From contig JBDGWG010000001.1 in the NCBI GenBank assembly GCA_039585235.1, positions 1,022 through 65,021 on the forward strand: 64,000 nt of DNA, read 5' to 3'. The translations under genes were made by a program, and so were the position numbers. This document shows positions 1,938-20,402 of the stretch, piece by piece. The notes under the pieces were generated by a model that was not told where the DNA came from, ran no database searches, and saw only the letters and a program-made list of their open reading frames with translations. This stretch comes from Gemmatimonadota bacterium (lineage in GTDB: Bacteria; Gemmatimonadota; Gemmatimonadetes; Palauibacterales; Palauibacteraceae). How positions within the stretch are numbered: the stretch's first letter is position 1; every line of letters begins with the position of its first letter.

Positions 1938-2389
1938 CAGGTCCTCTTGCTCACGACGATCTCGTCACCCCGGACATTGACGTCGAATGCGTCGAGCGGC
2001 CGCGGAGGAGGACCCTGAATGTTGCGTCCCGTCAGATCGAAATGGCCGTTGTGGCACGCGCACCAGATGTGCGAGATGTCGTCACGGAACTGCACGGTGC
2101 AGTCCAGGTGGGTGCACACGGCGGAGAACGCGCGCAACTCACCGGACTCGGTGCGCACCAGGATGCCGGGCTTGTTGCCGAAGCGGAACGCCTTCGCCGA
2201 GTTGAGACCGATCTCGTCCGGGCCGAACGGGAGAGCGACGCTCGAGGCGGACGACTCTCCCGCCTCGGGCGGGATGAGGTAGCGCGTCACGGGATACAGC
2301 ATGGCCACCGCGAAACTCCCGGCGCTGGTTCCCAGCAGCCAGTTCACGAAGGCCCGGCGCGACGACTTTGGCGAATCCGTCCCGGCCAT
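1937..2389 (-). CDS. petA: Rieske [2Fe-2S] iron-sulfur protein with Tat signal
   Basis: Canonical box I CTHLDC and box II CACHNGH. N-terminus [20 protein letters not shown] is a twin-arginine signal/TM anchor. The upstream 144 aa of the listed ORF is R/G-rich low complexity, so the start is taken at the internal ATG, giving about 150 aa. Confidence 0.85.
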
Positions 2390-2421
2390 GCGATTTCTCC
2401 CGTCTGACTCAGGCTCGCGGC

Positions 2422-4984: not shown

Positions 4985-5932
4985 TCAGTATCCGGTGTGG
5001 CAGATAGCGCACGACTGAGTGCTGCGGTCGGCGGCCCGCTCGGGATCGAAGTCCGGTCCGTGCGGATTCACGCGCCAGCCGGCCTTGGCCGAGTGACAGG
5101 CCAGACACTCGGTCTGCTGGTGGCAGGTAGTACAACTCTCCATGCCCTGCCGCGCCGCCACACCGTGCTGTTGAAGCCAGTTCGCTACGCCGTCGTGGTA
5201 CCCCCCGTTCTGGCGCCCGTTCTGCGCGACGCCCTGCGTGGAGTGGCAATCACGGCAGAAGACCTCCCGCGAGTGGCATTCGGCGCACTCCATCGGAGCG
5301 GCCCACGATTCCGCGCTGTGCCGCGTGACGAAGTTCGCCGGATGGTATTGAAAGTCAGAGTTCTTCGGTCCATCGTGACAGTCGACGCAGAACGTCTCCT
5401 TGTGGCATTGCGTGCAATTCGGGAGTCCCGCCGCTGCCGCGGTCGCGTGCTGCGTCTTGAAGTCGGGCGTATGTCCGGGCCCCGGATCGTAGTGACAGGT
5501 CTCGCACGGGTTGATTCCGACCTCGAAGTGGTCGGTCGCGCCGTTACCGTGACAGGCAAGGCATGTGTCACCCGAGGCTGCCTGGACGGCCATATCGCTT
5601 TCCGCCTCAGGGACGCCGTGACAGGTCTGGCACCCGAGCTTGGGGTGCGTGGCATGCTCGAACTTCAGGCCGCTTTCCTGTGGAGTGTATCCCTCCCAGT
5701 CCACCTCGACGACCATCTGACCGTTGTGACAGCCGGCGCACAGCGCCGGGTCCGCCGACACGTTCTGTGCCGCGTCTCCAGAGTAGATGCCCGCGTGGCA
5801 GCTCTCGCACCCGGCAGCTCCAAGCACCGCGTGCTTCTCGTGCGGAAACTCGAACGCTAAATGGGAGGCCGCGAGCAGCGCTCCGGCGCCGACCGTGAGA
5901 ACGAGGGCGCTCAGATAAGCGAGCCGCCTCAT
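4985..5932 (-). CDS. Dodecaheme periplasmic c-type cytochrome (MtrA/OmaB-like heme density)
   Basis: Twelve CXXCH in 315 aa (~26 aa per heme), with a signal peptide (MRRLAYLSALVLTVGAGALLAAS) and no lipobox. Its ATG overlaps the stop of the upstream beta-barrel gene at 5929-5932 (ATGA-type overlap). Confidence 0.85.
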   Translation of the reverse strand: MRRLAYLSALVLTVGAGALLAASHLAFEFPHEKHAVLGAAGCESCHAGIYSGDAAQNVSADPALCAGCHNGQMVVEVDWEGYTPQESGLKFEHATHPKLGCQTCHGVPEAESDMAVQAASGDTCLACHGNGATDHFEVGINPCETCHYDPGPGHTPDFKTQHATAAAAGLPNCTQCHKETFCVDCHDGPKNSDFQYHPANFVTRHSAESWAAPMECAECHSREVFCRDCHSTQGVAQNGRQNGGYHDGVANWLQQHGVAARQGMESCTTCHQQTECLACHSAKAGWRVNPHGPDFDPERAADRSTQSCAICHTGY

Positions 5933-7383
5933 CGGGTACCTCCAGTGTTGAAGCGCCAGCGCAGGCCGACCGTGGCGCGTCCTTCGCTCCAGGTGTCGGC
6001 AAGCGGCCGGTTCTTGTCTTCGATGCGGTAGAAGCCGAGGCTAGCGTCCAGCGTGAGATTCGCCTTGGCGATGTCATAAGCGCCCTCGACCGCGCCGCCC
6101 GTCACATAGCGCTCACCCTCGCGGAACTCGTACAGGGTCTCGGTCGAGGTTCCCCGAAGCGCCACATAGGAGGCGCCGGTCGGTCCGAGATAGCGCCCGA
6201 AGATCAGGTCGCCGCCGTATCGCGAGCCTCCGAATCCTTCTTCGGCCCTGTAGCGCGCGTCCACGTACCACTTGTCCGGGCTCCAGTAGACGCGACCGAA
6301 CCCACGCCAGCCGTCCTTCTTGACGGTCGTGTTGGCTGGACCCGCATTCGTGTCCTCGTACTCGCGGTACGCTCCGCCCGCTTCCACGAGGAGGGGCAGG
6401 TTTCTCGAAGTCCATGTCCCTGAAAGGCGCGCCTCGTTGAACCCGATGGGTGAGAATGCGCTCCAGATGGTCCAGTAATCGAAGAACGGAGTGTAATGAC
6501 GGCCCTGGGCGGCGAACCGGATTCCGAGGACCTGAGGAGTCGTGATTCGAAGCCGCGCGTCATTGATGTTGTCGAACGCGAAGTCGTAGCTCGCGGCGCC
6601 GTCGAACGCCCAGCCACCGACGAGCGCCCGCAGATCGACTGCGGCTCTCTCCGTATACAGGGCCAGGCGGTCCGTGCGAAGTTCCCTCTGGTAGGTCGCT
6701 GATCCCGAAAACACTTTTCCGCCGCGGAAGCCGAGCTCTCCTCCGAACAGCAGGCCGCGCCGGTCGGTGGCCAGGAGGTCCGACTCCGTGTACAGGCTGC
6801 CGTTGCGGGGAGCGTTAACGCCGCGGGCCAGGCTCCAACCGCCATATGCGTCAACCCACAACCAGCCGAGCCCGCGCCAGATGATCGACGCGCCGTCGAA
6901 GTTGTAGTAGCCGAGGCCTGAGGCCCGGTACATCCGTCCGGCTTTCACCTGGTAGGCTGCCCGATTGAAGCTCAGGTAGCCGGTCAGCAGGTCGAATTCC
7001 TGGTCCGTGCGTGGCCACAGCTCGTCGCTCCCGAAGCGCGTGCGCATCTGTCCGTGGAATGACAGGCCCTGCACCCCTGTCCAGCCGGCGAATCGCAGGT
7101 CCTGCGTGAACGGCATGATGTCCTGGCGCTGGCCTTTGTTCTCGTACCAGCGGCAGAAGTCGCCTTCGACGCACGATACTACCGTCCCGTCCGCGAGCTG
7201 GCGCTGGAGACCCGATCCAGAGACGTCTCCCTCGGGAACCGAATCCTGCTCGAACGGCTGGAGCTGCATCCAGCCCCAGTTGAGTCTGACGTCGCCGCGC
7301 ACGCCCTGGGCCTGGGCCTCTGACGGCAGCCACACCACGGCGCACGCGACTAACAAGAAGAACGGCCGGCGATGGACAGTCAT
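5929..7383 (-). CDS. Outer-membrane beta-barrel protein (putative porin partner of multiheme cytochrome)
   Basis: 484 aa with a signal peptide (FFLLVACAVVWLPSEAQAQG). Composition is Gly/Tyr/Trp/Arg-rich with alternating amphipathic strand patterns (YRASGLGYYNFDGASIIWRGLGWLWVDAYGGW) and no hydrophobic helices. Translationally coupled to the dodecaheme cytochrome. Confidence 0.6.
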   Translation of the reverse strand: MTVHRRPFFLLVACAVVWLPSEAQAQGVRGDVRLNWGWMQLQPFEQDSVPEGDVSGSGLQRQLADGTVVSCVEGDFCRWYENKGQRQDIMPFTQDLRFAGWTGVQGLSFHGQMRTRFGSDELWPRTDQEFDLLTGYLSFNRAAYQVKAGRMYRASGLGYYNFDGASIIWRGLGWLWVDAYGGWSLARGVNAPRNGSLYTESDLLATDRRGLLFGGELGFRGGKVFSGSATYQRELRTDRLALYTERAAVDLRALVGGWAFDGAASYDFAFDNINDARLRITTPQVLGIRFAAQGRHYTPFFDYWTIWSAFSPIGFNEARLSGTWTSRNLPLLVEAGGAYREYEDTNAGPANTTVKKDGWRGFGRVYWSPDKWYVDARYRAEEGFGGSRYGGDLIFGRYLGPTGASYVALRGTSTETLYEFREGERYVTGGAVEGAYDIAKANLTLDASLGFYRIEDKNRPLADTWSEGRATVGLRWRFNTGGTR

Positions 7384-7530: not shown

Positions 7531-10425
7531 CTAGCGGTAGCCGATTAACGCCGAGTAGACGATGTGGAGAACCAGGAATATTCCGATCCCGAGCATCGTG
7601 AACCCCACGACCCCGAAGATCAACTCCACTCGGCGTGGGTACGGTGGCACGAGGCGCTCTTCGAACTCTCCTGAAGCCACCATGCGTTCGTATTCCCTCG
7701 GCTTGTCCCTCTTCAGCTCCTCCACGGGTACGCGCCCCGTGAAGATCACCGGATCCATAGGGAACTTGTCGAGCCGGAAGTGAGTGTTGAAGAAGTGGAT
7801 CGTGAAGATGAACGCCACGGCCAGCAGCGCCTCATCGCTGTGGATGATGGTCGCCACATTCACCAGCCAACCCGGCAGGATGATCGTGAACAGCTCGGGG
7901 AACCAGAGCAGAAGGCCCGTGGAGCCAATCACGAACATCCCCCAGAACACGGCGAAGTAGTCGAACTTCTCCCAATAGGTGTATCGTCCGTAGTCCGGCC
8001 GGGGTCCCCAGCCCATGAACCACCTCACGGAGGCCCTAAACTCCCGGACGTCCGTCTTGTTGAACACGAGCGAGTCGCGCGACGTGATGAACTGGAGCCA
8101 CGTCTGACCGGCGCGGATTCTCTGCTTGCGCGCGTCGAACAGATGGACGAAGAACACCGAGAACAGCGCGATGGCGCCGATCCTGTGCCACACCCCCATG
8201 GCCTCGTAGCCGCCGAGCAGCCAGGCGAGCGTCTGGGCCCATCCCATATACGAGAACTTCAGGGCCATGCCCGTCAGGGCGAGGAGCATGAAGCTGACCA
8301 TCATGACGCCGTGCATCGATCTCTGGAACTTCGTGAAGCGTCGGTACTGCAGCGGTGGATCCGCTCCTTCCTCTGCCGCCACCGGCTCGTGTTTCCAGTC
8401 CTCCGGCGATCGCCACAGGCGCCACAGCCAGGCGAAGGTGTGAATACTGGCGAAGGTCAGAGTCCCGATCAGAAGGCTCGCCATGAACCAGAAGGTCCAG
8501 AACAGCCAGGGGTATTGCTCCGGGTCGTGGTGCGTTGCGTGCGTCAGATACCCCGTGAAACGCCGGTTCGCCCCCGGATGGCACTGAGCGCATGTCTCGA
8601 CGATGTTCCGGCGACTGAGGGTCGACGCCGGTTCCGTCGTGGGGAGGACGTTGTGCGTGCCGTGGCAATCGTAGCACTTGGCCGCGGTGGCCGCCCCGGC
8701 TCTGGACACCTTCCCGTGGTACGTATCGAAGAAGGTCTCTGATTCGTCCTCGTGGCACCTTCCACACTGGCTCATCATCAGCATGCGAAAGTCGTCGCGA
8801 TCCGTACGGCTGATCGTGTGCGACGTGTGGCAATCCTCGCACGTCGGGTAGTTGTGATCCCCCCCTCCGTTGGCGAAGTCGCCGTCTTCGGGCCAGTGCA
8901 CGCTTTCGCGGAACTGCTCTTCGATCCCGTGGTGACACTCGCCGCACGTCCCGGCGACGTTGTTCGGATTGATCGTAGAGGCGGCTTCCCCGGCGGGCAG
9001 CTCCGTGTGCGCCCCGTGACAGTCGGTGCAGGTCGCCGTGACTACGAGTCCGCTCTGGAGCAGTCCCTTGCCGTGGATGCTCATCTCGTAGCCCTGGACG
9101 ATATCGGCTCCGGTGCGCTCAATCCGCCGCGCCGCCGGTTCTCCCGCCATATGGCACCGGGAGCACAGGTCCGGAACGTTGCGCGGATAGATCGGCGAGG
9201 ATGGATTCGTTTGCTCGAACTCCGCGTGGCGCTCGTGGCAGTCGCCGCACGTGGGCGCGTCTGCGTCGCCTTGAGCCGCCAGCGTTCCGTGCATGCTGGA
9301 GCCGAATTCCTCTATCTGCACCGGGTGGCAGATGGCACAGTCAACCTCGGGCTCGATCGCCTCACACGGCCGTTCCTCGTAGATCGGTGTCACGTCGACG
9401 TGACACTGGGAGCACCCCGTCTCGGCATGCCCGGACTCGGCCCTCACCGACTGGTCTACGAAGAGGGATCGCTGCACCCCCCCCTCCTCTTCGACCACCA
9501 ACTCGGGGTCTCCGTGGCATTCCAGGCAGTCCTGTGTCGCGACCCCGGCGTCGTAGAACACGCGGCGGATCTTGTGCGGTTGATGGCAATCCACGCAGGG
9601 CGGGATTTTGTGCGGCTCTTCCTCCCACAGGCGTCCCTCGATGGCCTGCAGGTGAACCTCCTCGATCCTGCCGTGGCACTGCATGCACGTTCCGGCCACG
9701 TTCTCGGCGTGGATGCTGGATCGGTCGTCGGTGTGGGGAAGGATGAAGTGCGATGTGTGACAGGACGTGCAGACGGCCGTGACCGTCAGTCCCTGCTGGA
9801 ACAGTCCCGCCCCATGAATGGAAAGAGAGTAGTTCTCCAGGATCCGGTCCTGGGGGATGTCGAGTCTCTCCGACACCTCCGTACCTTCCTGGTGGCACTC
9901 GCCGCACAGGAAGGGGATGTTCATCACCGACGTGGACGAGGCCGGATCGCGGGAGGAGCGTACGTCATGTGTGCCGTGGCAGGTCGCACACGAGGGCGCG
10001 AGCGGGTCGCGCCGCGCGGCTGCCTGCCCGTGCAGGGACTGGTTGTGTTCAGCCCGCTGCGTGCCATGACACCGACCGCAGGTCGCGGGCGCCCGGTCTT
10101 CCGGGTGCGGGAACGTGAGGCCCTCGTGACAGTCCACACACCGCAGGCGGCCGTGGATCGAAGCGTCCAGCGTCTCACGTGTGACCACGAATCGGTCGCC
10201 GTCATCCCGGCTTTCCCAGAAAGCAGGGTTCGCGTGGCACATGAGGCAGTCGACTTCCTGTGCCTCCACTCGGTCCGGGAGGAGAGCGACCAGCCCGATC
10301 GCCAGGGCGATCCCGATCGTGCCTCGATATGCGGTCAGAGTCCGCAAGTCCATCGGATCTCCGGATATGTGGTATGTGTGAGTTCGTTTCCTTGGCCCGG
10401 ACACACCGCGACGCTCGACCGGCAA
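7531..10425 (-). CDS. Fusion protein: ~19-heme c-type cytochrome domain + C-terminal dihaem cytochrome b (HydC/FdnI-like) membrane domain
   Basis: About 19 CXXCH in the first ~630 aa. The C-terminal ~330 aa has 4-5 TM helices with conserved His (WHRIGAIALFSVFFVHLF; IIHSDEALLAVAFIFTIHFF), typical of membrane cytochrome b of the formate dehydrogenase/hydrogenase gamma family. The start may be the internal ATG at 10353 (MDLRTLTAYRGTIGIALAIGLVALL). Confidence 0.85.
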   Translation of the reverse strand: MPVERRGVSGPRKRTHTYHISGDPMDLRTLTAYRGTIGIALAIGLVALLPDRVEAQEVDCLMCHANPAFWESRDDGDRFVVTRETLDASIHGRLRCVDCHEGLTFPHPEDRAPATCGRCHGTQRAEHNQSLHGQAAARRDPLAPSCATCHGTHDVRSSRDPASSTSVMNIPFLCGECHQEGTEVSERLDIPQDRILENYSLSIHGAGLFQQGLTVTAVCTSCHTSHFILPHTDDRSSIHAENVAGTCMQCHGRIEEVHLQAIEGRLWEEEPHKIPPCVDCHQPHKIRRVFYDAGVATQDCLECHGDPELVVEEEGGVQRSLFVDQSVRAESGHAETGCSQCHVDVTPIYEERPCEAIEPEVDCAICHPVQIEEFGSSMHGTLAAQGDADAPTCGDCHERHAEFEQTNPSSPIYPRNVPDLCSRCHMAGEPAARRIERTGADIVQGYEMSIHGKGLLQSGLVVTATCTDCHGAHTELPAGEAASTINPNNVAGTCGECHHGIEEQFRESVHWPEDGDFANGGGDHNYPTCEDCHTSHTISRTDRDDFRMLMMSQCGRCHEDESETFFDTYHGKVSRAGAATAAKCYDCHGTHNVLPTTEPASTLSRRNIVETCAQCHPGANRRFTGYLTHATHHDPEQYPWLFWTFWFMASLLIGTLTFASIHTFAWLWRLWRSPEDWKHEPVAAEEGADPPLQYRRFTKFQRSMHGVMMVSFMLLALTGMALKFSYMGWAQTLAWLLGGYEAMGVWHRIGAIALFSVFFVHLFDARKQRIRAGQTWLQFITSRDSLVFNKTDVREFRASVRWFMGWGPRPDYGRYTYWEKFDYFAVFWGMFVIGSTGLLLWFPELFTIILPGWLVNVATIIHSDEALLAVAFIFTIHFFNTHFRLDKFPMDPVIFTGRVPVEELKRDKPREYERMVASGEFEERLVPPYPRRVELIFGVVGFTMLGIGIFLVLHIVYSALIGYR

Positions 10426-10540: not shown

Positions 10541-12520
10541 TCAAGATGTCACATGTTCGGTGGGTGCGTCCGCTTCCCCGGACTCGGTCGCCACTTTGTC
10601 TTCGTGCCCTGAAAGGCCGTTCTGCGCGTCATCACCGCCCGCGAGCTCCTCGTCATACCAGCGGCCGTGCACCGCCCTGGCCTCATGCTCGGGCATCTTC
10701 CCCGTCAGCCAGATCCAGCTCATCGGATAGACCTCGGGGTGGAACAGCACGAAGAAGAAGTGCCACACCACGATGGCCAGCGTGGCCAGCCAAGCCTCAT
10801 AGAAGTGGATGGTTTCAGAAATGGACACGATCCACGTGGGGAACAGCCCGGTGGCCCAGGAGGGGAACCACAGGACCACACCGGTGAGCGCCATGAGAAC
10901 CGTACCCCACACCAGCGCCCAGTACTCCGCCTTCTGGGTGTAATCGTACCGTCCGAATCGAGCCCGATGCGGGGAGCGCCACGTGTAGAAGCGCATGTTG
11001 TCGACGAATTCCTTCGCGTCCCTGACGTTAGGCGTCATCGCCTGGAACTCTTCCCTGCCGCGTTTCATGAACATGATGTACAGAACGTGGACGATCCCGA
11101 ATAAGATCAACCCGACGCCCAGCACGCGGTGCAGGGTCGATCGCACGGGTTCCGCCAGATAGGCGAGGCCCGTCACTCGCGCCCAGCCAGCTTCCGGGTA
11201 CCGGAGGGCGAATCCTGTGACGACCAGCAGGATGAAGGATGTGGCCAGCATGGCGTGCTGCGCGATCTGGATCCGGTCGAAGCGCAGGAAGCCTCGCTCG
11301 GCTCCATCCCGCCGCCGCTTCTCGACCATGTAGTAATTGAAAATGATCGCGTTGTGGATCGCCATTCCTCCGATGACGACCGCAATCAACGCGATATAGA
11401 TCGCGCGCACGATCCGCCGGCCCTTGTTCGTCGCGATCGAGGCTGCCCGATGGTCCCCTTCGTGACATTGCCGGCACGTGGCCACCACGTTGCCTTCCGC
11501 GACCGACGACTCCGGGTCGTCTGCCGGGAGCACGAAGTGGGTCGTGTGGCAGCTCACGCACGTGGCCGAGGTCTGACTGGCCCGCCGAGTCGCCCACCCG
11601 TGGTAGCTGTCGCTGTAGGAGAGGACAACCTCCTCCTGCAGACTGTACTTGGTGATGATCACGGGGTCGTTATGGCAATCGCCGCACAGCTGGGCAGCAA
11701 GATGCCCGGAGTGCGTACCGGCGTCGGGGTTGGCCGGATGCAGAATGAGGTGCTCGCCGTGACAGTCCGTGCACGTGGGGCTGTCGCTCACGCCCGCCGC
11801 CACCGCCCTGCCGTGGATCGAGCGGTCGTAGATCTCCGTGATGTTCCCGTGACACGCCCCGCACGTCGCCGACACGTTCCGCCGGTTGATCCTGGACTCG
11901 GGGTCTGAGTGACCCCTGAGATCGTGGACGCCATGACAGTCCGTGCAAGTGGCGGCCTCCGAGGGGCCGTTTCCATTCGCGGTCCCGTGCACGGAGCGGG
12001 CGTACTGCAGAGCCGGCGCCGGCAACTTCAGGTACTGATCGGTCAGCAGGCCACCCGTGCTGTGACACTCCGTGCACGTCTCGGCCACCCGCGCGTGGTA
12101 CGTGTGCGACTCCGGGTCGGTGCTCCGACGAATGTCGTGCGCCCCGTGGCAACCGGCACACGTCGGAGCCCGCGGGTTGCCGCGCTCCAGTGCGTACCCG
12201 TGCACGCTACCGGAATACTCTCGGCCTTCCCCGCCGTGGCACCCGCCGCAGCGAACCGGGGTGTACTCCTCGGGGTGGGGGTAGTTGAAGGCCTGGTGAC
12301 AGGTGATACAGGACATTCCGAAGCCGCCGTGCACCGAGCCGGCGAACTCTTCCTGCGTGACGACGAGGCGGGCGGAGTCTGCCCGTCCGGCGAAGTTGGC
12401 GGTATCTCCGTGGCAGGCGAGACAGAAACGGTTCTCCTGCGCGGAGAGACTGGTGGCGAATATGGCAACGCCAAGACCGGCCACCAGAATACGGGCTGGA
12501 TGGGGCCAATGGCTCAACAT
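10541..12520 (-). CDS. Fusion protein: 11-heme c-type cytochrome domain + C-terminal dihaem cytochrome b membrane domain (CbcL-like architecture)
   Basis: Signal peptide, eleven CXXCH in the N-terminal ~350 aa, then a ~300-aa polytopic domain with conserved His in TM helices (IAQHAMLATSFILLVVTGFAL; LHRVLGVGLILFGIVHVLYIMF; ETIHFYEAWLATLAIVVWHFFF). A paralogous architecture to 7531-10425. Confidence 0.85.
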   Translation of the reverse strand: MLSHWPHPARILVAGLGVAIFATSLSAQENRFCLACHGDTANFAGRADSARLVVTQEEFAGSVHGGFGMSCITCHQAFNYPHPEEYTPVRCGGCHGGEGREYSGSVHGYALERGNPRAPTCAGCHGAHDIRRSTDPESHTYHARVAETCTECHSTGGLLTDQYLKLPAPALQYARSVHGTANGNGPSEAATCTDCHGVHDLRGHSDPESRINRRNVSATCGACHGNITEIYDRSIHGRAVAAGVSDSPTCTDCHGEHLILHPANPDAGTHSGHLAAQLCGDCHNDPVIITKYSLQEEVVLSYSDSYHGWATRRASQTSATCVSCHTTHFVLPADDPESSVAEGNVVATCRQCHEGDHRAASIATNKGRRIVRAIYIALIAVVIGGMAIHNAIIFNYYMVEKRRRDGAERGFLRFDRIQIAQHAMLATSFILLVVTGFALRYPEAGWARVTGLAYLAEPVRSTLHRVLGVGLILFGIVHVLYIMFMKRGREEFQAMTPNVRDAKEFVDNMRFYTWRSPHRARFGRYDYTQKAEYWALVWGTVLMALTGVVLWFPSWATGLFPTWIVSISETIHFYEAWLATLAIVVWHFFFVLFHPEVYPMSWIWLTGKMPEHEARAVHGRWYDEELAGGDDAQNGLSGHEDKVATESGEADAPTEHVTS

Positions 12521-12735
12521 ATGGTGCCGCGTCCCTATTTGTGGTGGAGCGAGGGGGCTCCGGGCGGGAAACGCAGCACCATTCGTGCCGCGACGACGGC
12601 TCGCCGACCCGCTGCCTGGCGCGGAGATGCGAGCGAGGTGAAGTGCCTGCGTCAGAGCAAGTTACGGGAAGGCAGCCCCGAGTTTGGCAGGGCGGTCAGC
12701 GCAGGCCGCTCCGCCGGCTACGCCCAGAGGCCGGC

Positions 12736-14703
12736 CTATTGTCCCAGCGCCGGGACCTCATGGCACATCTCGCACGCTACCGGGGCGTTGTGCTCCACCC
12801 GGTCGGCATGGCACACCGTGCACACGTTGCGCGACCAGGCGGCCACGCCTTCGATTGCCTCACCGTGGCAGACGGCGCATCCCTGGTGAGCCCCGACGGG
12901 ATGGATCTGCAGGACGCCTCCCCGATGGCAGCTCAGGCACGTGGCTTCCGGCTGATGATGAGCGCCGTGACAGTTCTCGCACACATCAGCGCTCGGTGAG
13001 CCCGGGCTGTCGCCGTGGCACGTGGCGCACGCGAATCCGAGGGCCACGTGTGTCGGGTGAGGGAAATCTCCCGTGGCAGTGGTAATCGTGCCAGTCGGAG
13101 CGCGGGCGCCGCCCGCGTGGCACCGTTCGCACCCGATGGCTCCGCTGTGGTGACAGTCGGAGCACGCCGCCCGCGAGCCGAGAGCCATCCCGCCGTGCTC
13201 CTCCAGGCCCGTGTGACAGGCCGAGCACGGGAGGTTCGCCTCCTTCACATGCGGCTGATGCGAGAAGCGCGTACCCTGCCACACGCCTTCCTGGCGATCC
13301 ACGCCCAGGTGGCAGCCCAAACATGCGTTCTCCGCAACCGGTGTGCCGAGGCTCACCGTGGGCGGACGGTAGTCAAGACCGCCGCTTCGGGCGGCCCGAT
13401 CCACGTACTCCACGACCGCGCGCAGAAGCGCATCCGCATACCCTATGTTGTGTGCGCTCTGTCCCACCGAGACGAGTTCGACGTTGTCGGCCGCCAGGGC
13501 CAGCAAGCTGTCGGCCGTGGCGCGCTGCGCGAAAGAGCCGGTCCGGGGTGCCGAGGAGGCCGCTCGCACGATCGACGACACTCGCTTCAGCTTGCCGTCC
13601 ATCTCCGCCTGCCACGACGGCAGGATGTTGGCGTACTTGGTCCCGTGGCACGCCAGACAAGTAGCCTCCCCCGCCGCCTGGACCTGTTCGTGACCGGCGA
13701 TTTCACGTGGGAGGCCGTGGCAGCTCCCGCACGAGACACGGGCCTCGTACATGGCGCTCGGATCGTCCTCGGCGCCATGGCCTCCCGTGCCAGTGTACAG
13801 GTTGCGTTGCGCTGCGTGCGTACCCTGGTGGCAGGCCGTGCAGTCGAGCTCGAACGTGTCGGCGTGTGAGACCACCTCGTGCGCGATCGGCCGGTGACAC
13901 AGCTGACACTCCACGTTGTGCTCCCCGAGGTGCACCTCGTGCACAAGGGTCGCATCCGCGAACAGGGCGACCCTCTCCGGCTCGTTGTGACACCCGAAGC
14001 ACCGATCCTGCTCGGCCGCCCCGTCGCCCGACGTCACGCGGTCGTGACACGAGATGCACGATACCATGTCCCGCACGTACTGCGGATGATCGATCACGCC
14101 CGTCGCAGTGGTGATGAGCGGCGGTTCCACGTGGCAGCCCGTGCACCCGGCGATGGGCTCGCCTTCAGGGCGTCCCCGAAAGTGGCACAGAAAGCAGGTG
14201 CTCTTCGTGACCGCGACGTGATCTCCCTGCACGATCTGCGAGTGGCAGCTCGTGCACCGAAGCTGCTTGCCGCGCCGATGTGCAATCAGGTGATGCCGAT
14301 GGTCGAAGCGGACGCCGAGGAAAGTGAGCTCGCCCTCGATCTTGCGTGTCGAGTGGCACCCCGAACGCAGACACGCCGCATCCTCGATCTCGGCCCATGG
14401 CTTCGTCCCGTAGGTGCCCGTGACGTACTTCACGACCTGGTTGGCCGCCTGCATCTTTCCCATCGCCTCGGCCTTGATCCCGGGGGCGTAATGGCACTTG
14501 ATGCAGGGCACATCCTGGTGAGTGGAGGTCGTCCACGAATCGTAGTAAGGCTGCATGTTGTGGCAGTTCTTACAGAAACTGGGCCGCGCCGCGTACTCGA
14601 TGAACCCTACGGTCCCGAGCCCGGCCAACAGGATGAGGAGAATGATCCCCTGGACGACTACTCGAAGCAATCGCCTCCGCTTCTCGGGGTCGTGGCGGGT
14701 CAT
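12736..14703 (-). CDS. NapC/NirT/NrfH-family membrane quinol dehydrogenase module fused to a ~21-22-heme cytochrome c domain
   Basis: N-terminal TM (LLRVVVQGIILLILLAGLGTVGF) followed by the NrfH/NapC signature PSFCKNCHNMQPYYDSWTTSTHQDVPCIKCHY. The remaining ~580 aa carry ~19 more CXXCH plus one CX4CH (CLRSGCH). The internal ATG at 14703 is chosen as start (MTRHDPEKRRRLL) because it overlaps the TGA of the upstream gene as ATGA; the ORF track extends to 14799. Confidence 0.85.
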   Translation of the reverse strand: MTRHDPEKRRRLLRVVVQGIILLILLAGLGTVGFIEYAARPSFCKNCHNMQPYYDSWTTSTHQDVPCIKCHYAPGIKAEAMGKMQAANQVVKYVTGTYGTKPWAEIEDAACLRSGCHSTRKIEGELTFLGVRFDHRHHLIAHRRGKQLRCTSCHSQIVQGDHVAVTKSTCFLCHFRGRPEGEPIAGCTGCHVEPPLITTATGVIDHPQYVRDMVSCISCHDRVTSGDGAAEQDRCFGCHNEPERVALFADATLVHEVHLGEHNVECQLCHRPIAHEVVSHADTFELDCTACHQGTHAAQRNLYTGTGGHGAEDDPSAMYEARVSCGSCHGLPREIAGHEQVQAAGEATCLACHGTKYANILPSWQAEMDGKLKRVSSIVRAASSAPRTGSFAQRATADSLLALAADNVELVSVGQSAHNIGYADALLRAVVEYVDRAARSGGLDYRPPTVSLGTPVAENACLGCHLGVDRQEGVWQGTRFSHQPHVKEANLPCSACHTGLEEHGGMALGSRAACSDCHHSGAIGCERCHAGGARAPTGTITTATGDFPHPTHVALGFACATCHGDSPGSPSADVCENCHGAHHQPEATCLSCHRGGVLQIHPVGAHQGCAVCHGEAIEGVAAWSRNVCTVCHADRVEHNAPVACEMCHEVPALGQ

Positions 14704-16016
14704 CCTGCCACCCGGCTCGGATCCGAGCCCGGTTCGGTGCCCCGGAGACGCCACAGCCGGGAGCCGGCCAATACGATCGTGGCGAGCGCCAGGAACCACA
14801 CGGGGATGAGGAAGAGCTTGTGCTCCCAGCGCTCCTCGGCACTCACCTCGGCCTCCGCGACGATGTCACGCGAGATGGAGCCGACGACTCGCTCGAGGTC
14901 CTCGAGCCGCTCCAGATCCAGCGCGTGCTGCGCCGACGCCAGCTGCCGGTATTGAGTGAGGGCCGTGCGATAACGGAACCGCGTATCGCTGACCTCGTGC
15001 CCGGCCCGCACCAGCTCGTGGATCGCCTCCGCGGCCGCATCCATCTCCCGCTCGGCGCGCACGAGGATCTTCTCGATTTCCTCGCCCAGCACGGCGGGCG
15101 CGCTCGCCGGGGCGTGGCAGCCGGTGCACGTCGTGGCCACCAGATCCGGTGGGATTCGCTCCGTAAGGTGACTGCTGTGGCACGCCGTGCAGCCGAGAAG
15201 GACCCCCTCGGCCGTGGCCCTTCCGTGTGGCCCTTCATCGAGGGCCTTTCTCGTTCCGACGTGACACCGGCCGCACACGTTCGAGATCTCGCTCACATTC
15301 GGGGGCAGGGCCGCGTGAGACCCGTGGCACCCGATGCAGCTCGGCGCCGCGAAATTCAGATCCTCGAACAGGGCTGCGCCGTGCGCGCTCCGTCGGTGGC
15401 TGCGGACCTGATCCGTGGGGATGCCGTACGGTTCCATCAAGGCGTCGTCCTCGTGGCATACGGCGCACAAGGTCGGGATATTCAGAGGGTACGCACTGCT
15501 GCGAGCGTCGTCCGCTCGAAGCGTGGTGTGCGGATCGTGGCAGTCAGAGCACGTGGGGGCGTCCTCACTGCCTCGTTCCAGGAGGAGCATGCCATGTCGG
15601 CTGGTGCGCAGCTCGGCGATCTGGTCTGCGGGAAGACCGTACTGACGCATCGCGTCGGGATCAGCGTGACAGCTGGAGCACACCTCGACCGTAGCCAGCT
15701 TGCCCAGAGACCCGCGGAAGTCACCGCCGTGCGCCCCGGGAATCTCGAACGAGTCCGGGTCTCCTCCGTGACAGTCGTGGCACCGGACGTTTCTGTCGGA
15801 GTGCACTCCGAGCAGATACGCCCTCCTCTTGTCCGCGTGACAGATGAGGCAGCCGTACTGCGGGTCGATCCCGCCGGCTTCCTGCGGGACGGCCTCGCCA
15901 GAAACGACGTGCGCGCTGACGGACGCCTCTACCATGGGTGCGCGATCGAAGCCGGTAGCCGAAAAGATGCCTGCCATGACGAGGACAAAGCCGGCCTTCT
16001 TGAGCGTCGCGCTCAT
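14700..16016 (-). CDS. Nonaheme c-type cytochrome with C-terminal TM anchor (paralog of 2422-3675)
   Basis: Nine CXXCH (CLICH, CHDCH, CSSCH, CSDCH, CAVCH, CIGCH, CGRCH, CTACH, CTGCH). C-terminal helix LFLIPVWFLALATIVLAG. Blocks are collinear with the 417-aa nonaheme protein (e.g. EPYGIPTDQ conserved in both). Start overlaps the stop of the cytochrome b gene (16013-16016). Confidence 0.85.
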   Translation of the reverse strand: MSATLKKAGFVLVMAGIFSATGFDRAPMVEASVSAHVVSGEAVPQEAGGIDPQYGCLICHADKRRAYLLGVHSDRNVRCHDCHGGDPDSFEIPGAHGGDFRGSLGKLATVEVCSSCHADPDAMRQYGLPADQIAELRTSRHGMLLLERGSEDAPTCSDCHDPHTTLRADDARSSAYPLNIPTLCAVCHEDDALMEPYGIPTDQVRSHRRSAHGAALFEDLNFAAPSCIGCHGSHAALPPNVSEISNVCGRCHVGTRKALDEGPHGRATAEGVLLGCTACHSSHLTERIPPDLVATTCTGCHAPASAPAVLGEEIEKILVRAEREMDAAAEAIHELVRAGHEVSDTRFRYRTALTQYRQLASAQHALDLERLEDLERVVGSISRDIVAEAEVSAEERWEHKLFLIPVWFLALATIVLAGSRLWRLRGTEPGSDPSRVAG

Positions 16017-17278
16017 TCTCCGGGACCCTCCTCCCCCGCCTCGGCTTCCGCCGCTTCACCCTCAGCCTCATCGACCGGTTCTGACGAGGGCGGCGCAGGG
16101 ATGGCCCTTTCCTCCAGGATGCGGGACTCGACCCCGGCGCTCGGTGTGACCGAATCGACGCGGCTGCCGAGCGCCCAGAACACGAGAAAACCGAGGAAGA
16201 AAGCCAGACCGATCGCCGCCGCCACAGGACGCTTGCGCAAGGCAGCCGCACTGCCCCGGTCGACGAGCGGGAGAAGCACGAGCATCATGCCGAGCGCCGA
16301 GAAGCCAACGAAGCCCCACACCCCCAGGTAACGGATCAACCCGAGCGACACGTCGACCACGATCCACGTCGACACCAGCTCTCCCGGGAGCTCGAACGGA
16401 GTTGCTGGGTCTCCGACGGGCCGTGGGAACAGCGCGGCGAGCGAGATCGCAATGGCCAGTACGAGGGCGCTCACGATCACGATGCGCAGAAGATGGTTGG
16501 GGAAGAACGGCACGCCCCCTCCATCCCGTTCGGCGAAGCCCGGTGGTGGGGCGACCCCGTGCTTGCGGACCACCACGAAGTGCAGCACCAGGAGTCCGAA
16601 TACGAACCAGGGCAGCACGATTACGTGCAGCGCGAAGAAGCGGCTCAGCGTTGCGCCGGACACGAACACGTCACCCGTCAGGAAGCTGGCTGCTGCTCCC
16701 CCGATCAGTGGTGCGGAGCGCGCGACATCCATCACCTCGGTAGTCGTCCAGTAGGCCCACTGGTCCCAAGGGAGGAGGTAACCCGTCGCCCCAAAGGCCA
16801 GCACGCCGAACAGGAGCAGGACGCCCACCAGCCAGCTCGTCTCCCTCGGCGGCTTGTAGGCGCCGGCGAAGAAGACGCGGGCCATGTGCGCCATGAGCGC
16901 CACGACGATCAGGTTGGCCGACCACACGTGCAGGTCGCGCAACAGCCACCCGAAGGGGACCTCCGTCGCGATGTACTGTATGCTATGGTAGGCCTCGTCG
17001 ACGGACGGACGGTAGTAGAAGGAGAGCAGAACCCCCGAAGCGACGAGGACCATGAACAGAAGATACGCGACTCCACCGAACGCGTGTTTCCAACTCACAT
17101 ATGAGGGCAGACGTCGGCTCCAGGCCTCACGCAACGCTTCGTCGATGGGAAGGCTTCGGTCGATCCGTCCGTACAGGAGGCCGACCAGCCGGAGGCCGGC
17201 GAGCAGGCTTGCGTCCGTGCTCTCCTTGATGTCGGCTCCGATCTGTCTGAGCCAGGTGCGCCCCCGTTTCTCTGCCAT
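16013..17278 (-). CDS. petB: Cytochrome b (second bc-type complex)
   Basis: 421 aa, polytopic, with the conserved His quartet (LHVWSANLIVVALMAHMARVFF; FALHVIVLPWFVFGLLVLHFVVV) and a Glu/Ala-rich acidic C-terminal tail. Confidence 0.9.
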   Translation of the reverse strand: MAEKRGRTWLRQIGADIKESTDASLLAGLRLVGLLYGRIDRSLPIDEALREAWSRRLPSYVSWKHAFGGVAYLLFMVLVASGVLLSFYYRPSVDEAYHSIQYIATEVPFGWLLRDLHVWSANLIVVALMAHMARVFFAGAYKPPRETSWLVGVLLLFGVLAFGATGYLLPWDQWAYWTTTEVMDVARSAPLIGGAAASFLTGDVFVSGATLSRFFALHVIVLPWFVFGLLVLHFVVVRKHGVAPPPGFAERDGGGVPFFPNHLLRIVIVSALVLAIAISLAALFPRPVGDPATPFELPGELVSTWIVVDVSLGLIRYLGVWGFVGFSALGMMLVLLPLVDRGSAAALRKRPVAAAIGLAFFLGFLVFWALGSRVDSVTPSAGVESRILEERAIPAPPSSEPVDEAEGEAAEAEAGEEGPGE

Positions 17279-17287
17279 GTCCTTACC

Positions 17288-17740
17288 TCAGTCCCGCGTC
17301 ACGTATACGGCGCCGTCCCTCACGAAGACGTCGTAGCGCTGAAGCGGCTCGGTCGTAAGGCCCTCGACCGCCTGGCCGCGAAGGTTGTACAACATGTGCC
17401 CGCAAGGTGAGGTCACGCGCATGGCCGCGGCGTCCCACTCGAGTAGGCACCCGTCCACTGGAGATGCCCCCTGGAGCGCCGCAAAATTGCTCTCACCGCT
17501 CCGCACCACGAGGATGGCCTGCTCCCCCCAGCTTGCCATGCGGCTGCTGCCTACGGTGAAGTCCTCGGCGCGCGCCACCCGGACTGCTACCTCGCGCTGT
17601 GCTATGATCAAGTGCTCCGGGGGGACGGTGTAGATCGCCGCGATCGCCGCCGCGATCAGGAACACGACGCCGAGTACGGCATTCAACAAGAACGTGCCGA
17701 AGTCGCGCTTGCGACCCGGTTCCGAGTGCTCTGGAGACAT
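17288..17740 (-). CDS. Rieske-fold protein with degenerate [2Fe-2S] ligand boxes, TM-anchored
   Basis: 151 aa from the internal ATG at 17740 (MSPEHSEPGRKRDFGTFLLNAVLGVVFLIAAAIAAIY...). The C-terminal half aligns with the canonical Rieske at 1937-2389, but box I reads SPVDGC (canonical CTHLDC) and box II reads SPCGHM (canonical CACHNGH), so two or three of the four cluster ligands are missing. Sits immediately upstream of the cytochrome b gene, as petA does. Confidence 0.55.
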   Translation of the reverse strand: MSPEHSEPGRKRDFGTFLLNAVLGVVFLIAAAIAAIYTVPPEHLIIAQREVAVRVARAEDFTVGSSRMASWGEQAILVVRSGESNFAALQGASPVDGCLLEWDAAAMRVTSPCGHMLYNLRGQAVEGLTTEPLQRYDVFVRDGAVYVTRD

Positions 17741-17997
17741 TGGGCTCGCAGCCTCGATAGTTGATCGCCCCGGTCGGGAAGAATCAGCAGCTCCCCCGGG
17801 CGGCTCGTGCGGGCGCTGAAAAGCTACGGCCGGTGGGGACACGATGCCAGAACGTCGGTTGGCCTGTGGAACGCGTCCAAACTCGCGTGGGGGGACGCGG
17901 TGTCCTAATTTCAAAACCACTTCGGTCGAGCGCCGGGAGAGGCTTTGTGCGTTTTCGTGCGCGCCTGGCGTGATACCAATCGCAAGGAGAGCGTAGG

Positions 17998-18384
17998 ATG
18001 ATTCGAAATGTCGTGATCACCGCCGCCGCGCTGCTGTTCGTCGCGGCCGGCTCGGCCTTCGCACAGGACGCGAAGCCGCCGGTCATGTCGCATGACCTAG
18101 AGGGCAAAGACAACTGCGTCATGTGTCACTCGGGGGCGATGGAGGGCATTCCGGCGCAGCCGGCGGACCATGAAGGTCGTGCGGTCGAGACGTGCGTCCA
18201 GTGCCATGCAGCCGACGCCGAGATGCAAACGTCTACCGCGAATGCAATTCCTCATGACCTGGAAGGCAAGGACAACTGCTCCATGTGCCATTCCGGGGCA
18301 ATGGAAGGCATGCCAGCGGCTCCGGCGAGCCACGAGGGCCGGGGAGCTGACACCTGTGAGATGTGCCACAAGCCGGCCGGCTGA
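17998..18384 (+). CDS. Small periplasmic tetraheme cytochrome c built from a tandem duplication
   Basis: 128 aa with a signal peptide (AALLFVAAGSAFAQD) and four CXXCH. Two ~45-aa repeats are nearly identical (HDLEGKDNCVMCHSGAMEGIPAQPADHEGRAVETCVQCH / HDLEGKDNCSMCHSGAMEGMPAAPASHEGRGADTCEMCH). Good SD AAGGAG 8 nt upstream of the ATG. Confidence 0.85.
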   Translation: MIRNVVITAAALLFVAAGSAFAQDAKPPVMSHDLEGKDNCVMCHSGAMEGIPAQPADHEGRAVETCVQCHAADAEMQTSTANAIPHDLEGKDNCSMCHSGAMEGMPAAPASHEGRGADTCEMCHKPAG

Positions 18385-18433
18385 CAACGGCAGGCAGGCT
18401 GTCGAAGAAGGCAAAGAAGCCCTTTCCTGAACG

Positions 18434-18472
18434 GAGAGACCCGCGGAAGCCACAGGCCTCCGCGGGTCTCTC
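18434..18472. terminator. Bidirectional intrinsic-terminator-like hairpin between convergent cytochrome genes
   Basis: Perfect 14-bp stem GAGAGACCCGCGGA / TCCGCGGGTCTCTC with an 11-nt loop, followed by a C/T-rich tract (gtcttcctc). Lies between the stop of 17998-18384 (+) and the stop of 18522-20006 (-). Confidence 0.55.
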
Positions 18473-18521
18473 GTCTTCCTCGATCTGACGACCCGTGCTG
18501 CCGGGCCGCCTGCCTGTGAGC

Positions 18522-20006
18522 TTACGGCGCGCTCACGCCGTACTCGTCCTCGACGGCGACGATGCTCGCTTCCAGCAGGTCCCTGATCCACGGTGGGTTG
18601 TGGGTCGTAGAGCCATACACATCCCCGCCATGGGTTGCCAGGTGGTAGTTGAAGAAGCCACCCTCGGCCACGGTGAACGTGGAGACGGTCGCGTCGATCT
18701 CGCCGCCCGGCTCGTCGAGATTGGGATCCACCTGCTCGAGCAGGGCGAGCAAAATGTCCGCCTGTGCGCGCGCGAAATCGGCCCTGACGTTCAGGATCGC
18801 GGCGGCGCCGTCCTCAGATGAGTGACAACCGGAGTCCACGCAACCCACGAATGATCGAGCCTCGGTCGTGACCGCACAGTCTGTCTCTCCGTCCGGGATG
18901 CCGTTCTCGTCCACGCAGGGGATGGCGTCGAACGTGTGCCCCACCGACTGGAACTGGAATTCGCCAGTGGCCTCGTCGGTGACCGTGTACATAGCCACGT
19001 GGCACGTCGCGCACAGCTTCTCGTTGCTGGTCGATCCGTGTGTCGCGACGACCGAACCGAGAGCCAGGCCGGAACCTGGCGGAATCCAGCCGGCCTCTCC
19101 AATCAGCAGTTCGGCCTCGGGAGCGTGCGGCTCGAGGCCGTGTGACGAGTTGGGATCCGCGACCGAACGTCGGTTGTGGCACCGCGCGCACAGGTGAACC
19201 TGCACGTCCGGCGTGGCCACCGGGAATCGAAGCTGACCATCGAAAGTGGCGTCATGCATCGAGTGGCACACGCCACAGACCACCGCGAGGGGTTCCTCGC
19301 TGTCCCTTTCCAAGTAGTCCGAGCGGACGCCCCAGGCCAGCAACGTGCCCTGGCCCCGGTGGCAACCGGCGCACTCGAGGTTGCTGGCCGCGAAACCGAC
19401 GACCTCGGAGTGTTTCGACAGCTCCCACTGCTCGACGAAGGGGTGATGCGTCCCGTTATGGCATTCACCGCATCCGTTCGTCAGGTCCGTGCCCACTGCC
19501 AGCGATGGGAGCGGCTTGGTTGCTTCGGGGTTGAGCACGTGAGCCTCGCCGGCGCCGTGACACGACTCGCATTGCACGTCGATGTATCGAAGCGTGTCGC
19601 CGGTGGCGGTGAAGGCCACGTCCTCGGTTTCCGCGTTGCCGAGCTGGCTGACCGTATGGCAGGCCTTGCAGAACTTCTGTGCATGTCCGCTCTCTTGCAG
19701 CCCCTCCCACGCCCTCGCGTGTGCCGTCGCCATCCAGCTGGAGCTCGGAGTCGCATGGCACTGCGCACAGGTCGGGTCGCCCACGCGACCCTGCACATAG
19801 CCGAGGAAGCCCCCGGCCTCCACGGGCGGGTCATCGCCGAACGGACGGTCGTTGAACACGGTGTCCTCGTCCACGCAGCCGCCCGCTAGAACGGCAAGGA
19901 AGAGCACGGCGAGGCTGGCTCTCACGGTCCGACGGAAGGAGCCGCGACGGAAGTCGGAGTCGCCCACGGTGACCTCTCCTGAAGTTGAAACTGCCGGGTC
20001 CGGCAC
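18522..20006 (-). CDS. Lipoprotein multiheme c-type cytochrome (8 CXXCH + 1 CX4CH)
   Basis: Lipoprotein signal RASLAVLFLAVLAGGC (lipobox LAGGC). Motifs are CAQCH, CKACH, CESCH, CGECH, CAGCH, CGVCH, CARCH, CATCH plus CVDSGCH. Confidence 0.85.
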   Translation of the reverse strand: MPDPAVSTSGEVTVGDSDFRRGSFRRTVRASLAVLFLAVLAGGCVDEDTVFNDRPFGDDPPVEAGGFLGYVQGRVGDPTCAQCHATPSSSWMATAHARAWEGLQESGHAQKFCKACHTVSQLGNAETEDVAFTATGDTLRYIDVQCESCHGAGEAHVLNPEATKPLPSLAVGTDLTNGCGECHNGTHHPFVEQWELSKHSEVVGFAASNLECAGCHRGQGTLLAWGVRSDYLERDSEEPLAVVCGVCHSMHDATFDGQLRFPVATPDVQVHLCARCHNRRSVADPNSSHGLEPHAPEAELLIGEAGWIPPGSGLALGSVVATHGSTSNEKLCATCHVAMYTVTDEATGEFQFQSVGHTFDAIPCVDENGIPDGETDCAVTTEARSFVGCVDSGCHSSEDGAAAILNVRADFARAQADILLALLEQVDPNLDEPGGEIDATVSTFTVAEGGFFNYHLATHGGDVYGSTTHNPPWIRDLLEASIVAVEDEYGVSAP

Positions 20007-20174: not shown

Positions 20175-20402
20175 ATGAGTGACCGAACTTTCCTGATACT
20201 TCTGATAGTTGCAAGCGCGTTGGCGCTGGCGATCGGCGTGTGGATCGGCCTCGGCTACCCGGGACTGTACGATCGTTACGAGGACACCGGCGCGAAGGCC
20301 CCCCGGAAGGCTCCCATCCGCATCCTCCTCGATCGGTTCGGGGGTTCCCGGCGCAGGGGGAGCGGTCGAAGGCCCGGAACCGGGCGGTGGTCCCGCCGGT
20401 GA
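20175..20402 (+). CDS. Small membrane protein (one TM) possibly translationally coupled to the CDF transporter
   Basis: MSDRTFLILLIVASALALAIGVWIGLGY is a clean TM helix, with a GGAG SD 6 nt upstream. The TGA overlaps the candidate GTG start of the CDF gene (gGTGA). The C-terminal half is Arg/Gly-rich low complexity, so the call is uncertain. Confidence 0.3.
   Translation: MSDRTFLILLIVASALALAIGVWIGLGYPGLYDRYEDTGAKAPRKAPIRILLDRFGGSRRRGSGRRPGTGRWSRR

Follow-up and report, generated by a model that had tools for sequence, protein, structure and literature searches.

A 22-haem cytochrome with an NrfH-type head encoded beside a Rieske-like/cytochrome b pair in Gemmatimonadota

In the NrfHA nitrite reductase, NrfH serves as a tetrahaem menaquinol dehydrogenase, and TorC shows that the NapC/NirT family tolerates a C-terminal extension by a further haem domain. 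ImcH of Geobacter sulfurreducens (GSU3259) has been implicated in passing electrons from quinol to extracellular acceptors. Here we describe a gene from a Gemmatimonadota bacterium, located in a 64,000-nucleotide stretch of contig JBDGWG010000001.1 (hereafter the window), whose product joins an NrfH-type module to a long multihaem domain. We propose, with a probability of roughly 0.65, that this protein is an inner-membrane-anchored, periplasm-facing 22-haem cytochrome acting as the quinone-pool-linked electron wire of a trans-envelope pathway. Several properties of the described systems bear on this proposal. In NrfH, Met49 of the CXXCHXM motif is the proximal ligand of haem 1, and this Met is essential in the Wolinella succinogenes protein, whereas CymA lacks it (10.1101/2022.01.10.475773); Lys82 of NrfH and Lys91 of CymA are the quinol-binding lysines (PMC2762525). 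ImcH homologues have been described as having three transmembrane (TM) helices, a CX3CH motif, 6-10 haem motifs and no linkage to a cytochrome b gene (PMC6295460). The Geobacter genes GSU2930-2937, in which a Rieske protein and a cytochrome b are clustered with 2-, 10-, 12- and 5-haem cytochromes, have been suggested to provide the site at which quinol is oxidized during extracellular respiration (PMC2825233). This cluster is the nearest system-level precedent for the locus described here, although gene order and proteins differ. In the literature on multihaem cytochromes and extracellular electron transfer in Gemmatimonadota, on CX4CH motifs in NapC/NirT proteins and on Rieske-linked NapC, nonahaem and NrfH proteins, we found no description of this family or operon.

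The target gene lies within a minus-strand open reading frame (ORF) spanning 12736-14799, and an internal ATG at 14703 yields a protein of 655 amino acids (Table 1). This start is consistent with the N termini of orthologues, and its ATG shares the sequence ATGA with the TGA of the upstream gene, a 4-base overlap. A preliminary description of this DNA had delimited the ORF in the same way and had called the upstream gene nonahaem; translation and motif counting bear out both statements, with nine CXXCH motifs counted in the upstream protein. The target itself contains 22 haem sites, 21 of the CXXCH type and one CX4CH (CLRSGCH, residues 111-117), and all 44 of its cysteines fall within these motifs. 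A motif scan found neither CXXCK nor CX3CH. Because CXXCH occurred only 0.22 times on average, and never more than 4 times, in 20,000 shuffles of the target's residues, the observed pattern is not attributable to chance. The single CX4CH had been recognized previously, but the earlier estimate of about 17 further CXXCH motifs was too low, as 18 follow the NrfH-like module. The sole hydrophobic segment in a hydropathy scan covers residues 10-39 and is preceded by an Arg/Lys-rich stub. One TM segment with a basic cytoplasmic stub predicts a signal-anchored topology that places the haem domain in the periplasm.

The N-terminal region was previously assigned to the NrfH/NapC type, and several independent comparisons agree. 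It scores above the gathering cut-off of the Pfam NapC/NirT family (PF03264, Cytochrom_NNT; residues 11-105, 35.7 bits versus 24.1), in a match that covers profile positions 7-106 of 174 and hence the first half only. The best match among solved structures for the first 170 residues is Desulfovibrio vulgaris NrfH (2j7a_C), in which residues 13-120 are colinear with residues 13-120 of the target. In an hhalign comparison, a profile of 22 diverse N-terminal modules matched an NrfH fragment, assembled from the alignments of our PDB sequence searches, with a probability of 98.2% (E 2.8e-14). Four predicted c-haem sites (C44, C67, C111 and C150) are colinear with those of NrfH, the third being CX4CH instead of the usual CXXCH. 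Since the CX4CH site sits where NrfH has its third CXXCH in the alignment to 2j7a_C, it belongs to the head and not, as had been thought, to the extension. Its "xGCH" form resembles that of the cytochrome c3 variant, as had been proposed, although the alignment to c3 is not significant (E 0.22). Target Met50 corresponds to NrfH Met49, and both Met50 and Lys83, the counterpart of the quinol-site Lys, are invariant across 22 diverse members of the wider clade. The head (residues 40-165) is also the most conserved region of the protein, with 53% invariant columns compared to 15-26% elsewhere.

The remainder of the protein is made up of two haem-rich segments of c3/c7 type, separated by a haem-free helical region. 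The first segment (residues 166-355) matches the Pfam families Cytochrome_C7, Cytochrom_c3_2 and Cytochrom_CIII above their cut-offs, and for the target PF14522 scores 66.5 bits (cut-off 24.8), PF14537 59.0 bits (cut-off 25) and PF02085 34.5 bits (cut-off 22.9). Residues 208-432 match OcwA of Thermincola (6i5b) in sequence and profile searches of solved structures, and profile matches in the tail (residues 461-600) include the Geobacter dodecahaem protein GSU1996 (3ov0), the pentahaem ActA of alternative complex III (ACIII; 8k9e, 6lod, 6f0k) and Hmc. Residues 16-446 of the target align end to end with a complete 12-haem protein of 444 amino acids (P0185) from a Tectomicrobia metagenome-assembled genome (MAG), at 39% identity (E 4e-99), and the ten-haem tail is missing from the 12-haem members of the clade. 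The end-to-end alignment therefore identifies the first 455 residues as a 12-haem core and the last 200 as an added tail. In an alignment of 39 sequences, all 22 haem sites are invariant or nearly so, and 23 His residues outside the motifs are invariant; Met50, Met81 and Met318 are further candidate ligands. With 23 His and three Met for 22 haems, the supply of axial ligands would allow six-coordination of essentially every haem. This ligand supply, along with the absence of CXXCK, would fit electron transfer better than catalysis.

We next consider how widely this architecture occurs. A search of 5.8 billion protein clusters returned 1689 homologues, the best 120 of which are mostly 650-700 amino acids long, with at least 95% query cover and 55-91% identity; where a source is named, it is Gemmatimonadota. 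A scan of species-representative genomes found a relative in at least 574, nearly all of them Gemmatimonadota and including complete chromosomes; the best 80 matching genomes are all MAGs. The fusion of an NrfH-type module to a long multihaem domain, as read in the preliminary description, is genuine: its full-length architecture is retained by the best 120 homologues listed and by no fewer than 574 genomes. When the head alone (residues 1-165) was used as a query against 1.84 billion representative proteins, with hits counted as clusters at 50% identity, 1809 clusters were found at E 0.001, 669 at 1e-10 and 173 at 1e-30. A CX4CH-type motif, mostly C[LM][RQ]xGCH, is present in 137 of the 150 best clade representatives, most of which also have CXXCHXM. 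Full-length clade members carry mainly 12-31 haem motifs, with peaks at 12 and 18 and smaller groups at 21-22, 24 and 27-31, and those with a named source include proteins from Armatimonadota (858 amino acids, 31 motifs) and Tectomicrobia. Judged from these alignments, the clade is a broad, multi-phylum, uncharacterized branch of the NapC/NirT/NrfH superfamily, and the 22-haem protein is its Gemmatimonadota form. The target had been called unusually large, which holds only in comparison with characterized NapC/NirT members; many clusters at 50% identity contain proteins that combine this head with 12 to 31 haem motifs, and by motif count the size of the target is ordinary within its own clade.

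Other arrangements of the module also occur. Three proteins of 1320-1440 amino acids (P0277, encoded at L087 7001-10966, P0213 and P0224) have an NrfH-like CX4CH module after about 880 haem-free residues; at L087, the one locus examined for these long variants, the gene adjoins Hdr-like genes (CCG, FlpD, FAD/Fe-S) and not a Rieske/cytochrome b pair. Another clade variant, P0259, has N-terminal CBS and cNMP-binding domains before the module. A full operon of the Gemmatimonadota type, with 68-84% identity to the window proteins, was also found in a MAG labeled Akkermansiaceae (L008, CAXMRU010000218.1), a label that is probably a binning error.

The most informative feature of the locus, which the preliminary description passed over, is the conserved operon that the target forms with a Rieske-like/cytochrome b pair. 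In the window, the Rieske-like gene is separated by a 9-base gap from the cytochrome b gene, which overlaps the nonahaem gene by 4 bases, and the nonahaem gene in turn overlaps the target by 4 bases. This order was observed in 59 of the 61 Gemmatimonadota loci with enough upstream DNA, and the gene directly preceding the target is always the nonahaem one. The order also occurs outside the family in four contigs (L083-L086), one of them labeled Armatimonadota, which encode in turn a Rieske protein, a cytochrome b together with subunit IV, an approximately 420-residue cytochrome with 8-9 CXXCH and a C-terminal TM helix, and an NrfH-headed long cytochrome. A 12-haem clade member in Tectomicrobia likewise adjoins a Rieske/cytochrome b/nonahaem cluster. 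The Rieske proteins of these four contigs and of the Tectomicrobia locus have the ligands CxH...CxCH. In about 60 orthologues of the Rieske-like protein in the window, DGC[IL]LxWD...SPC is kept, with two Cys, but both His ligands are gone and neither CxH nor CxxH is found. The operon's cytochrome b retains the four haem-ligand His, but the PEWY of the window's canonical copy (840-1937) is replaced in it by LVS[TS]W[IV]. Having lost the Rieske ligands and PEWY, the partner module in Gemmatimonadota cannot run a canonical Q cycle, and we infer that the NrfH head is left as the most plausible P-side quinol site.

The best named NCBIfam match of this cytochrome b is the cytochrome b6 model at 221 bits, closely followed by ExtP at 216 bits, both below their respective cut-offs. 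The ExtP model describes the b-type cytochrome of a selenite/tellurite-reduction operon, and ExtP probably belongs to the GSU2930-2937 cluster. CbcBA was considered as the nearest analogue of the cytochrome b/nonahaem pair and rejected, as CbcB is a HydC-type b cytochrome with four TM helices and not of the bc1/b6 type. A scan of 12400-18600 for promoters and terminators yielded nothing informative on the coding strand.

Set against the described systems, the target is by analogy most like NrfH or CymA joined to a haem array of the GSU1996/ActA type. Features in common with NrfH (D. vulgaris 2J7A chain C; W. succinogenes) are the N-terminal TM helix, near-identical positions of four predicted haem sites, CXXCHXM and the equivalent lysines Lys82/Lys83, and the target differs in having CX4CH at haem 3, Gln in place of Asp89 and 18 extra haems at the C terminus. 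It also differs in its genetic partner, which is the Rieske-like/cytochrome b pair and not NrfA: CXXCK is present in no cytochrome of the cluster and Cytochrom_C552 has no match among the neighbors, so there is no adjacent nrfA. PF03264 membership, a membrane anchor and the conserved quinol-site Lys are shared with CymA, NapC and TorC (PMC2762525), which have 4-5 haems versus 22 in the target; the NCBIfam TorC and DorC models give 30.4 and 25.1 bits, far below their cut-offs of 455 and 478. ImcH is likewise an inner-membrane multihaem protein that partly resembles NapC/NirT and has a single atypical haem motif, but the target resides in a Rieske/cytochrome b operon. The locus departs from GSU2930-2937 in that the target has no match to the NCBIfam Ext models and in that the Rieske ligands and PEWY are gone in Gemmatimonadota. 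Bis-His haem arrays of c7/c3 type like that predicted for the extension are found in GSU1996 (3OV0), ActA, Hmc and OcwA (6I5B); none of these has an NrfH-type quinol head, ActA being a pentahaem ACIII subunit and the other three soluble or surface proteins. The likeness to CbcL of Geobacter lies in two neighboring fusions of multihaem and b-type domains, not in the target itself, and the likeness to MtrAB/Pcc conduits lies in a neighboring barrel gene coupled to a 12-haem gene. On these profile and motif comparisons, the target is a NapC/NirT protein at the domain level; it scores below the NrfH equivalog cut-off, has no NrfA partner and does not show the features of ImcH or TorC.

The observations presented above led us to consider how such a protein could work. 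We hypothesize that the head works like NrfH and CymA, trading both electrons and protons with the pool of (mena)quinone on the periplasmic side of the membrane, and that the 18 further haems, most of them predicted to be bis-His ligated, serve as a wire. This wire would give electrons to, or take them from, the co-encoded nonahaem, lipoprotein and CbcL-like proteins, and in many genomes the route may continue to an outer-membrane barrel and 12-haem pair, resulting in trans-envelope (extracellular) electron transfer. Flow could occur either way, with quinol oxidized for extracellular acceptors or quinone reduced from extracellular donors. Several observations weigh against this proposal. The target aligns to positions 5-136 of 138 of the NCBIfam NrfH equivalog model (TIGR03153) but scores 48 bits, well under its cut-off of 134.2; significant NrfH homology in hhalign is limited to the stretch that runs from the TM helix through haems 1 and 2 to the Lys-bearing helix after them; and Asp89 of NrfH is replaced by an invariant Gln throughout the target family. 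A quinone-active head beside a quinone-binding cytochrome b looks redundant. The AlphaFold2 model of the target, built from the 39-sequence alignment, is too poor for fold searches (predicted local distance difference test [pLDDT] 56, predicted template modeling score [pTM] 0.37), its only confident part being helices at residues 356-439 (pLDDT about 90). At the outer membrane, the barrel protein (5929-7383) matches no Pfam family, MtrB/PioB included, and in 15 of 43 loci the 8.5 kb downstream contain no barrel and 12-haem pair.

A more tentative extension of this hypothesis, which we regard as possible but would not favor, is that these operons encode an undescribed class of Rieske/cytochrome b complex, in which a C-terminally anchored nonahaem protein stands in for cytochrome c1/f and an NrfH-headed cytochrome with 12-31 haems is an integral subunit. 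Such a complex would combine two kinds of quinone site, one in cytochrome b and the other in the NrfH head, and would be wired directly to cytochromes of the periplasm and the outer membrane. With the Qo machinery (Rieske cluster and PEWY) decayed in Gemmatimonadota, P-side quinol oxidation would have passed to the NrfH head, while cytochrome b would be retained for transmembrane electron transfer or for an N-side quinone site.

The same operon admits a different division of labor. The target could be an integral subunit of a novel Rieske/cytochrome b complex whose head is for anchoring or docking only, while cytochrome b carries out the quinol chemistry and the 22 haems merely lengthen the output chain of the c1/f-like nonahaem protein. 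The conserved operon order (59/61 loci) and overlapping stop and start codons are what this would predict, the same order accompanies an intact Rieske motif in L083-L086, and the Geobacter cluster offers a precedent for a Rieske/cytochrome b pair with several multihaem cytochromes (PMC2825233). A head used only for docking is difficult to reconcile with the clade-wide invariance of Lys83 and of the CXXCHXM Met, or with the head being the most conserved region, and the loss of the Rieske ligands and PEWY from the Gemmatimonadota partner makes the head the best candidate for the P-side quinol site; we therefore consider this alternative rather unlikely. We assign a considerably lower likelihood to the target being a fused NrfH and reductase, with an OcwA/NrfA-like middle part that carries a catalytic haem for the reduction of a soluble substrate in the periplasm, for example nitrite, hydroxylamine, sulfite or a metal chelate. 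The match of residues 208-432 to OcwA, a member of the NrfA-related family, points in this direction, as does the clade member P0259, which reaches the Pfam Cytochrom_C552 cut-off over its C-terminal helical part. The OcwA match, however, involves only C-terminal haems and helices and not the catalytic haem-1 region, the target has no CXXCK and no Cytochrom_C552 match at E<=0.1, and its invariant His suffice for bis-His ligation of essentially all haems.

Two further explanations are less probable still. The preliminary description had compared the target with ImcH, and an enlarged ImcH orthologue, serving as a Geobacter-type high-potential quinol oxidase for extracellular electron transfer, would account for two NapC/NirT-related membrane multihaem cytochromes with one atypical haem motif each; moreover, ImcH homologues have been reported in two Gemmatimonadetes (PMC6295460). 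Yet the target has one TM helix, CX4CH and 22 motifs, compared to the published three TM helices, CX3CH and 6-10 motifs (PMC6295460), differences of description and not of alignment that leave little of this kinship and make orthology very improbable. That the ORF is an assembly or sequencing artefact, in which an NrfH gene of normal size was run together with the cytochrome gene behind it, is suggested by the unusual length and by nothing else. It is excluded, as nearly as such a thing can be, by the full-length homologues (the best 120 listed being mostly 650-700 amino acids with at least 95% cover), by the at least 574 genomes, complete chromosomes among them, and by an alignment in which no haem motif is lost.

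Table 1. Features of the 22-haem cytochrome gene and its neighborhood (positions in the window)
Feature	Position	Strand	Basis
22-haem NrfH-headed cytochrome gene, 655 amino acids	12736..14703	-	ORF and motif count; stop codon 12736-12738
N-terminal TM helix (residues 10-39), predicted signal anchor	14587..14676	-	Hydropathy; aligns with NrfH TM helix
NrfH-like tetrahaem quinol-dehydrogenase module (residues 40-165; haems 1-4: C44, C67, C111, C150)	14209..14586	-	PF03264, TIGR03153, 2j7a_C, hhalign
Haem-1 site CKNCHNM (CXXCHXM; Met50)	14554..14574	-	Invariant in family and wider clade
Lys83, counterpart of quinol-site Lys	14455..14457	-	Lys-to-Lys aligned with NrfH Lys82 (sequence search, hhalign)
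CX4CH site CLRSGCH (residues 111-117)	14353..14373	-	Invariant in family; at NrfH haem 3 position
Eight-haem c3/c7-type region (residues 166-355; haems 5-12)	13639..14208	-	Pfam above cut-offs; C-terminal part matches OcwA 6i5b
Haem-free helical region (residues 356-455), closing the 12-haem core	13339..13638	-	AlphaFold2 helices; matches OcwA C-terminal helices
Ten-haem C-terminal tail (residues 456-655; haems 13-22), c7-array/ActA-like	12739..13338	-	Profile matches
Upstream nonahaem cytochrome, signal peptide and C-terminal TM anchor	14700..16016	-	9 CXXCH; stop overlaps target start
Cytochrome b (fused b6 + subunit-IV type)	16013..17278	-	PF00033, PF13631; four conserved His, no PEWY
Rieske-fold protein without 2Fe-2S ligand motifs	17288..17920	-	Weak Rieske_2 match
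CbcL-like fusion: 11-haem domain and FdnI/HydC-type dihaem b membrane domain	10541..12520	-	Pfam, NCBIfam, motif count
Second CbcL-like fusion: 19 haems and FdnI/HydC-type b membrane domain	7531..10425	-	Pfam, NCBIfam, motif count
Predicted large outer-membrane beta-barrel	5929..7383	-	AlphaFold2 pLDDT 86, about 22-24 long strands
12-haem cytochrome, 4-base overlap with barrel gene	4985..5932	-	Motif count, translational coupling
Lipoprotein-type cytochrome, 8 CXXCH and one CX4CH (CVDSGCH)	18522..20006	-	Pfam, motif count

The operon is embedded in a larger island, the opening 20 kb of the window coding for about 106 haem-binding motifs. Both CbcL-like fusions lie directly downstream of the target, and CbcL-like genes are found downstream in 30 of 43 Gemmatimonadota loci. 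The barrel gene follows in 28 of 43; almost all of the top 50 PDB matches listed by Foldseek for its product are outer-membrane barrels (MOMP, FimD/PapC usher pores, porins), and together with the 12-haem gene it looks like a porin-cytochrome pair in its arrangement, the barrel fold being a predicted one. Upstream, the lipoprotein cytochrome is present in 32 of 48 Gemmatimonadota loci, and it contains the second CX4CH site (CVDSGCHS) that had been noted there. The gene content of the island reads like an inventory of components for a putative trans-envelope electron route. In some genomes (L001 12302-15105 and L086 12339-15023), the gene after the target belongs to a multihaem/4Fe-4S/NrfD-type (Qrc/ACIII-like) module and not to the CbcL-like type. 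The gene content downstream of the core operon suggests interchangeable quinone-interacting partners.

The energy metabolism of Gemmatimonadota, which abound in soils and sediments, is not well understood; a recent survey of marine members reported generic iron-gene matches only (PMC11316326). A conserved island of about 106 motifs around the target suggests that many of these bacteria can carry electrons from the quinone pool to the cell surface or back, which, if true, would bear on iron, manganese and humic cycling. In the clade, quinone modules of the NrfH/NapC and Rieske/cytochrome b types, usually seen as alternatives, come together. Its members further form a natural series from intact to decayed Rieske and PEWY sites, with 12-31 haems, that could show how bc complexes are rewired for multihaem output. 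The head signature (CXXCHXM, Lys and CX4CH) provides a simple metagenome marker for such systems.

Further genes in the window deserve mention. A second, canonical Rieske/cytochrome b set occupies 840-4889 on the minus strand, with a Rieske protein that has a PetC-type anchor and CTH...CACH, a cytochrome b with PEWY (840-1937), its own nonahaem protein at 2422-3675, which has a TM helix at its C terminus, and, at 3672-4889, a cytochrome that combines four CXXCH with class-I cytochrome c domains. With its listed start at 2821, the second Rieske ORF extends 400 bases into the upstream gene and is probably too long. Another minus-strand ORF, which runs off the start of the window (to 655), contains at least seven CXXCH. 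The genes we looked at beyond about 20.2 kb are unrelated to the island, among them a cation-efflux gene (20240-21292) and an 820-amino-acid ORF (22131-24593) that is leucyl-tRNA synthetase-like by eye only. Close to the operon, a small tetrahaem cytochrome with a signal peptide (17998-18384, plus strand) is conserved in about 20 loci and is internally duplicated, with HDLEGKDNCxMCHSGAMEGxPAxPAxHEGR occurring twice.

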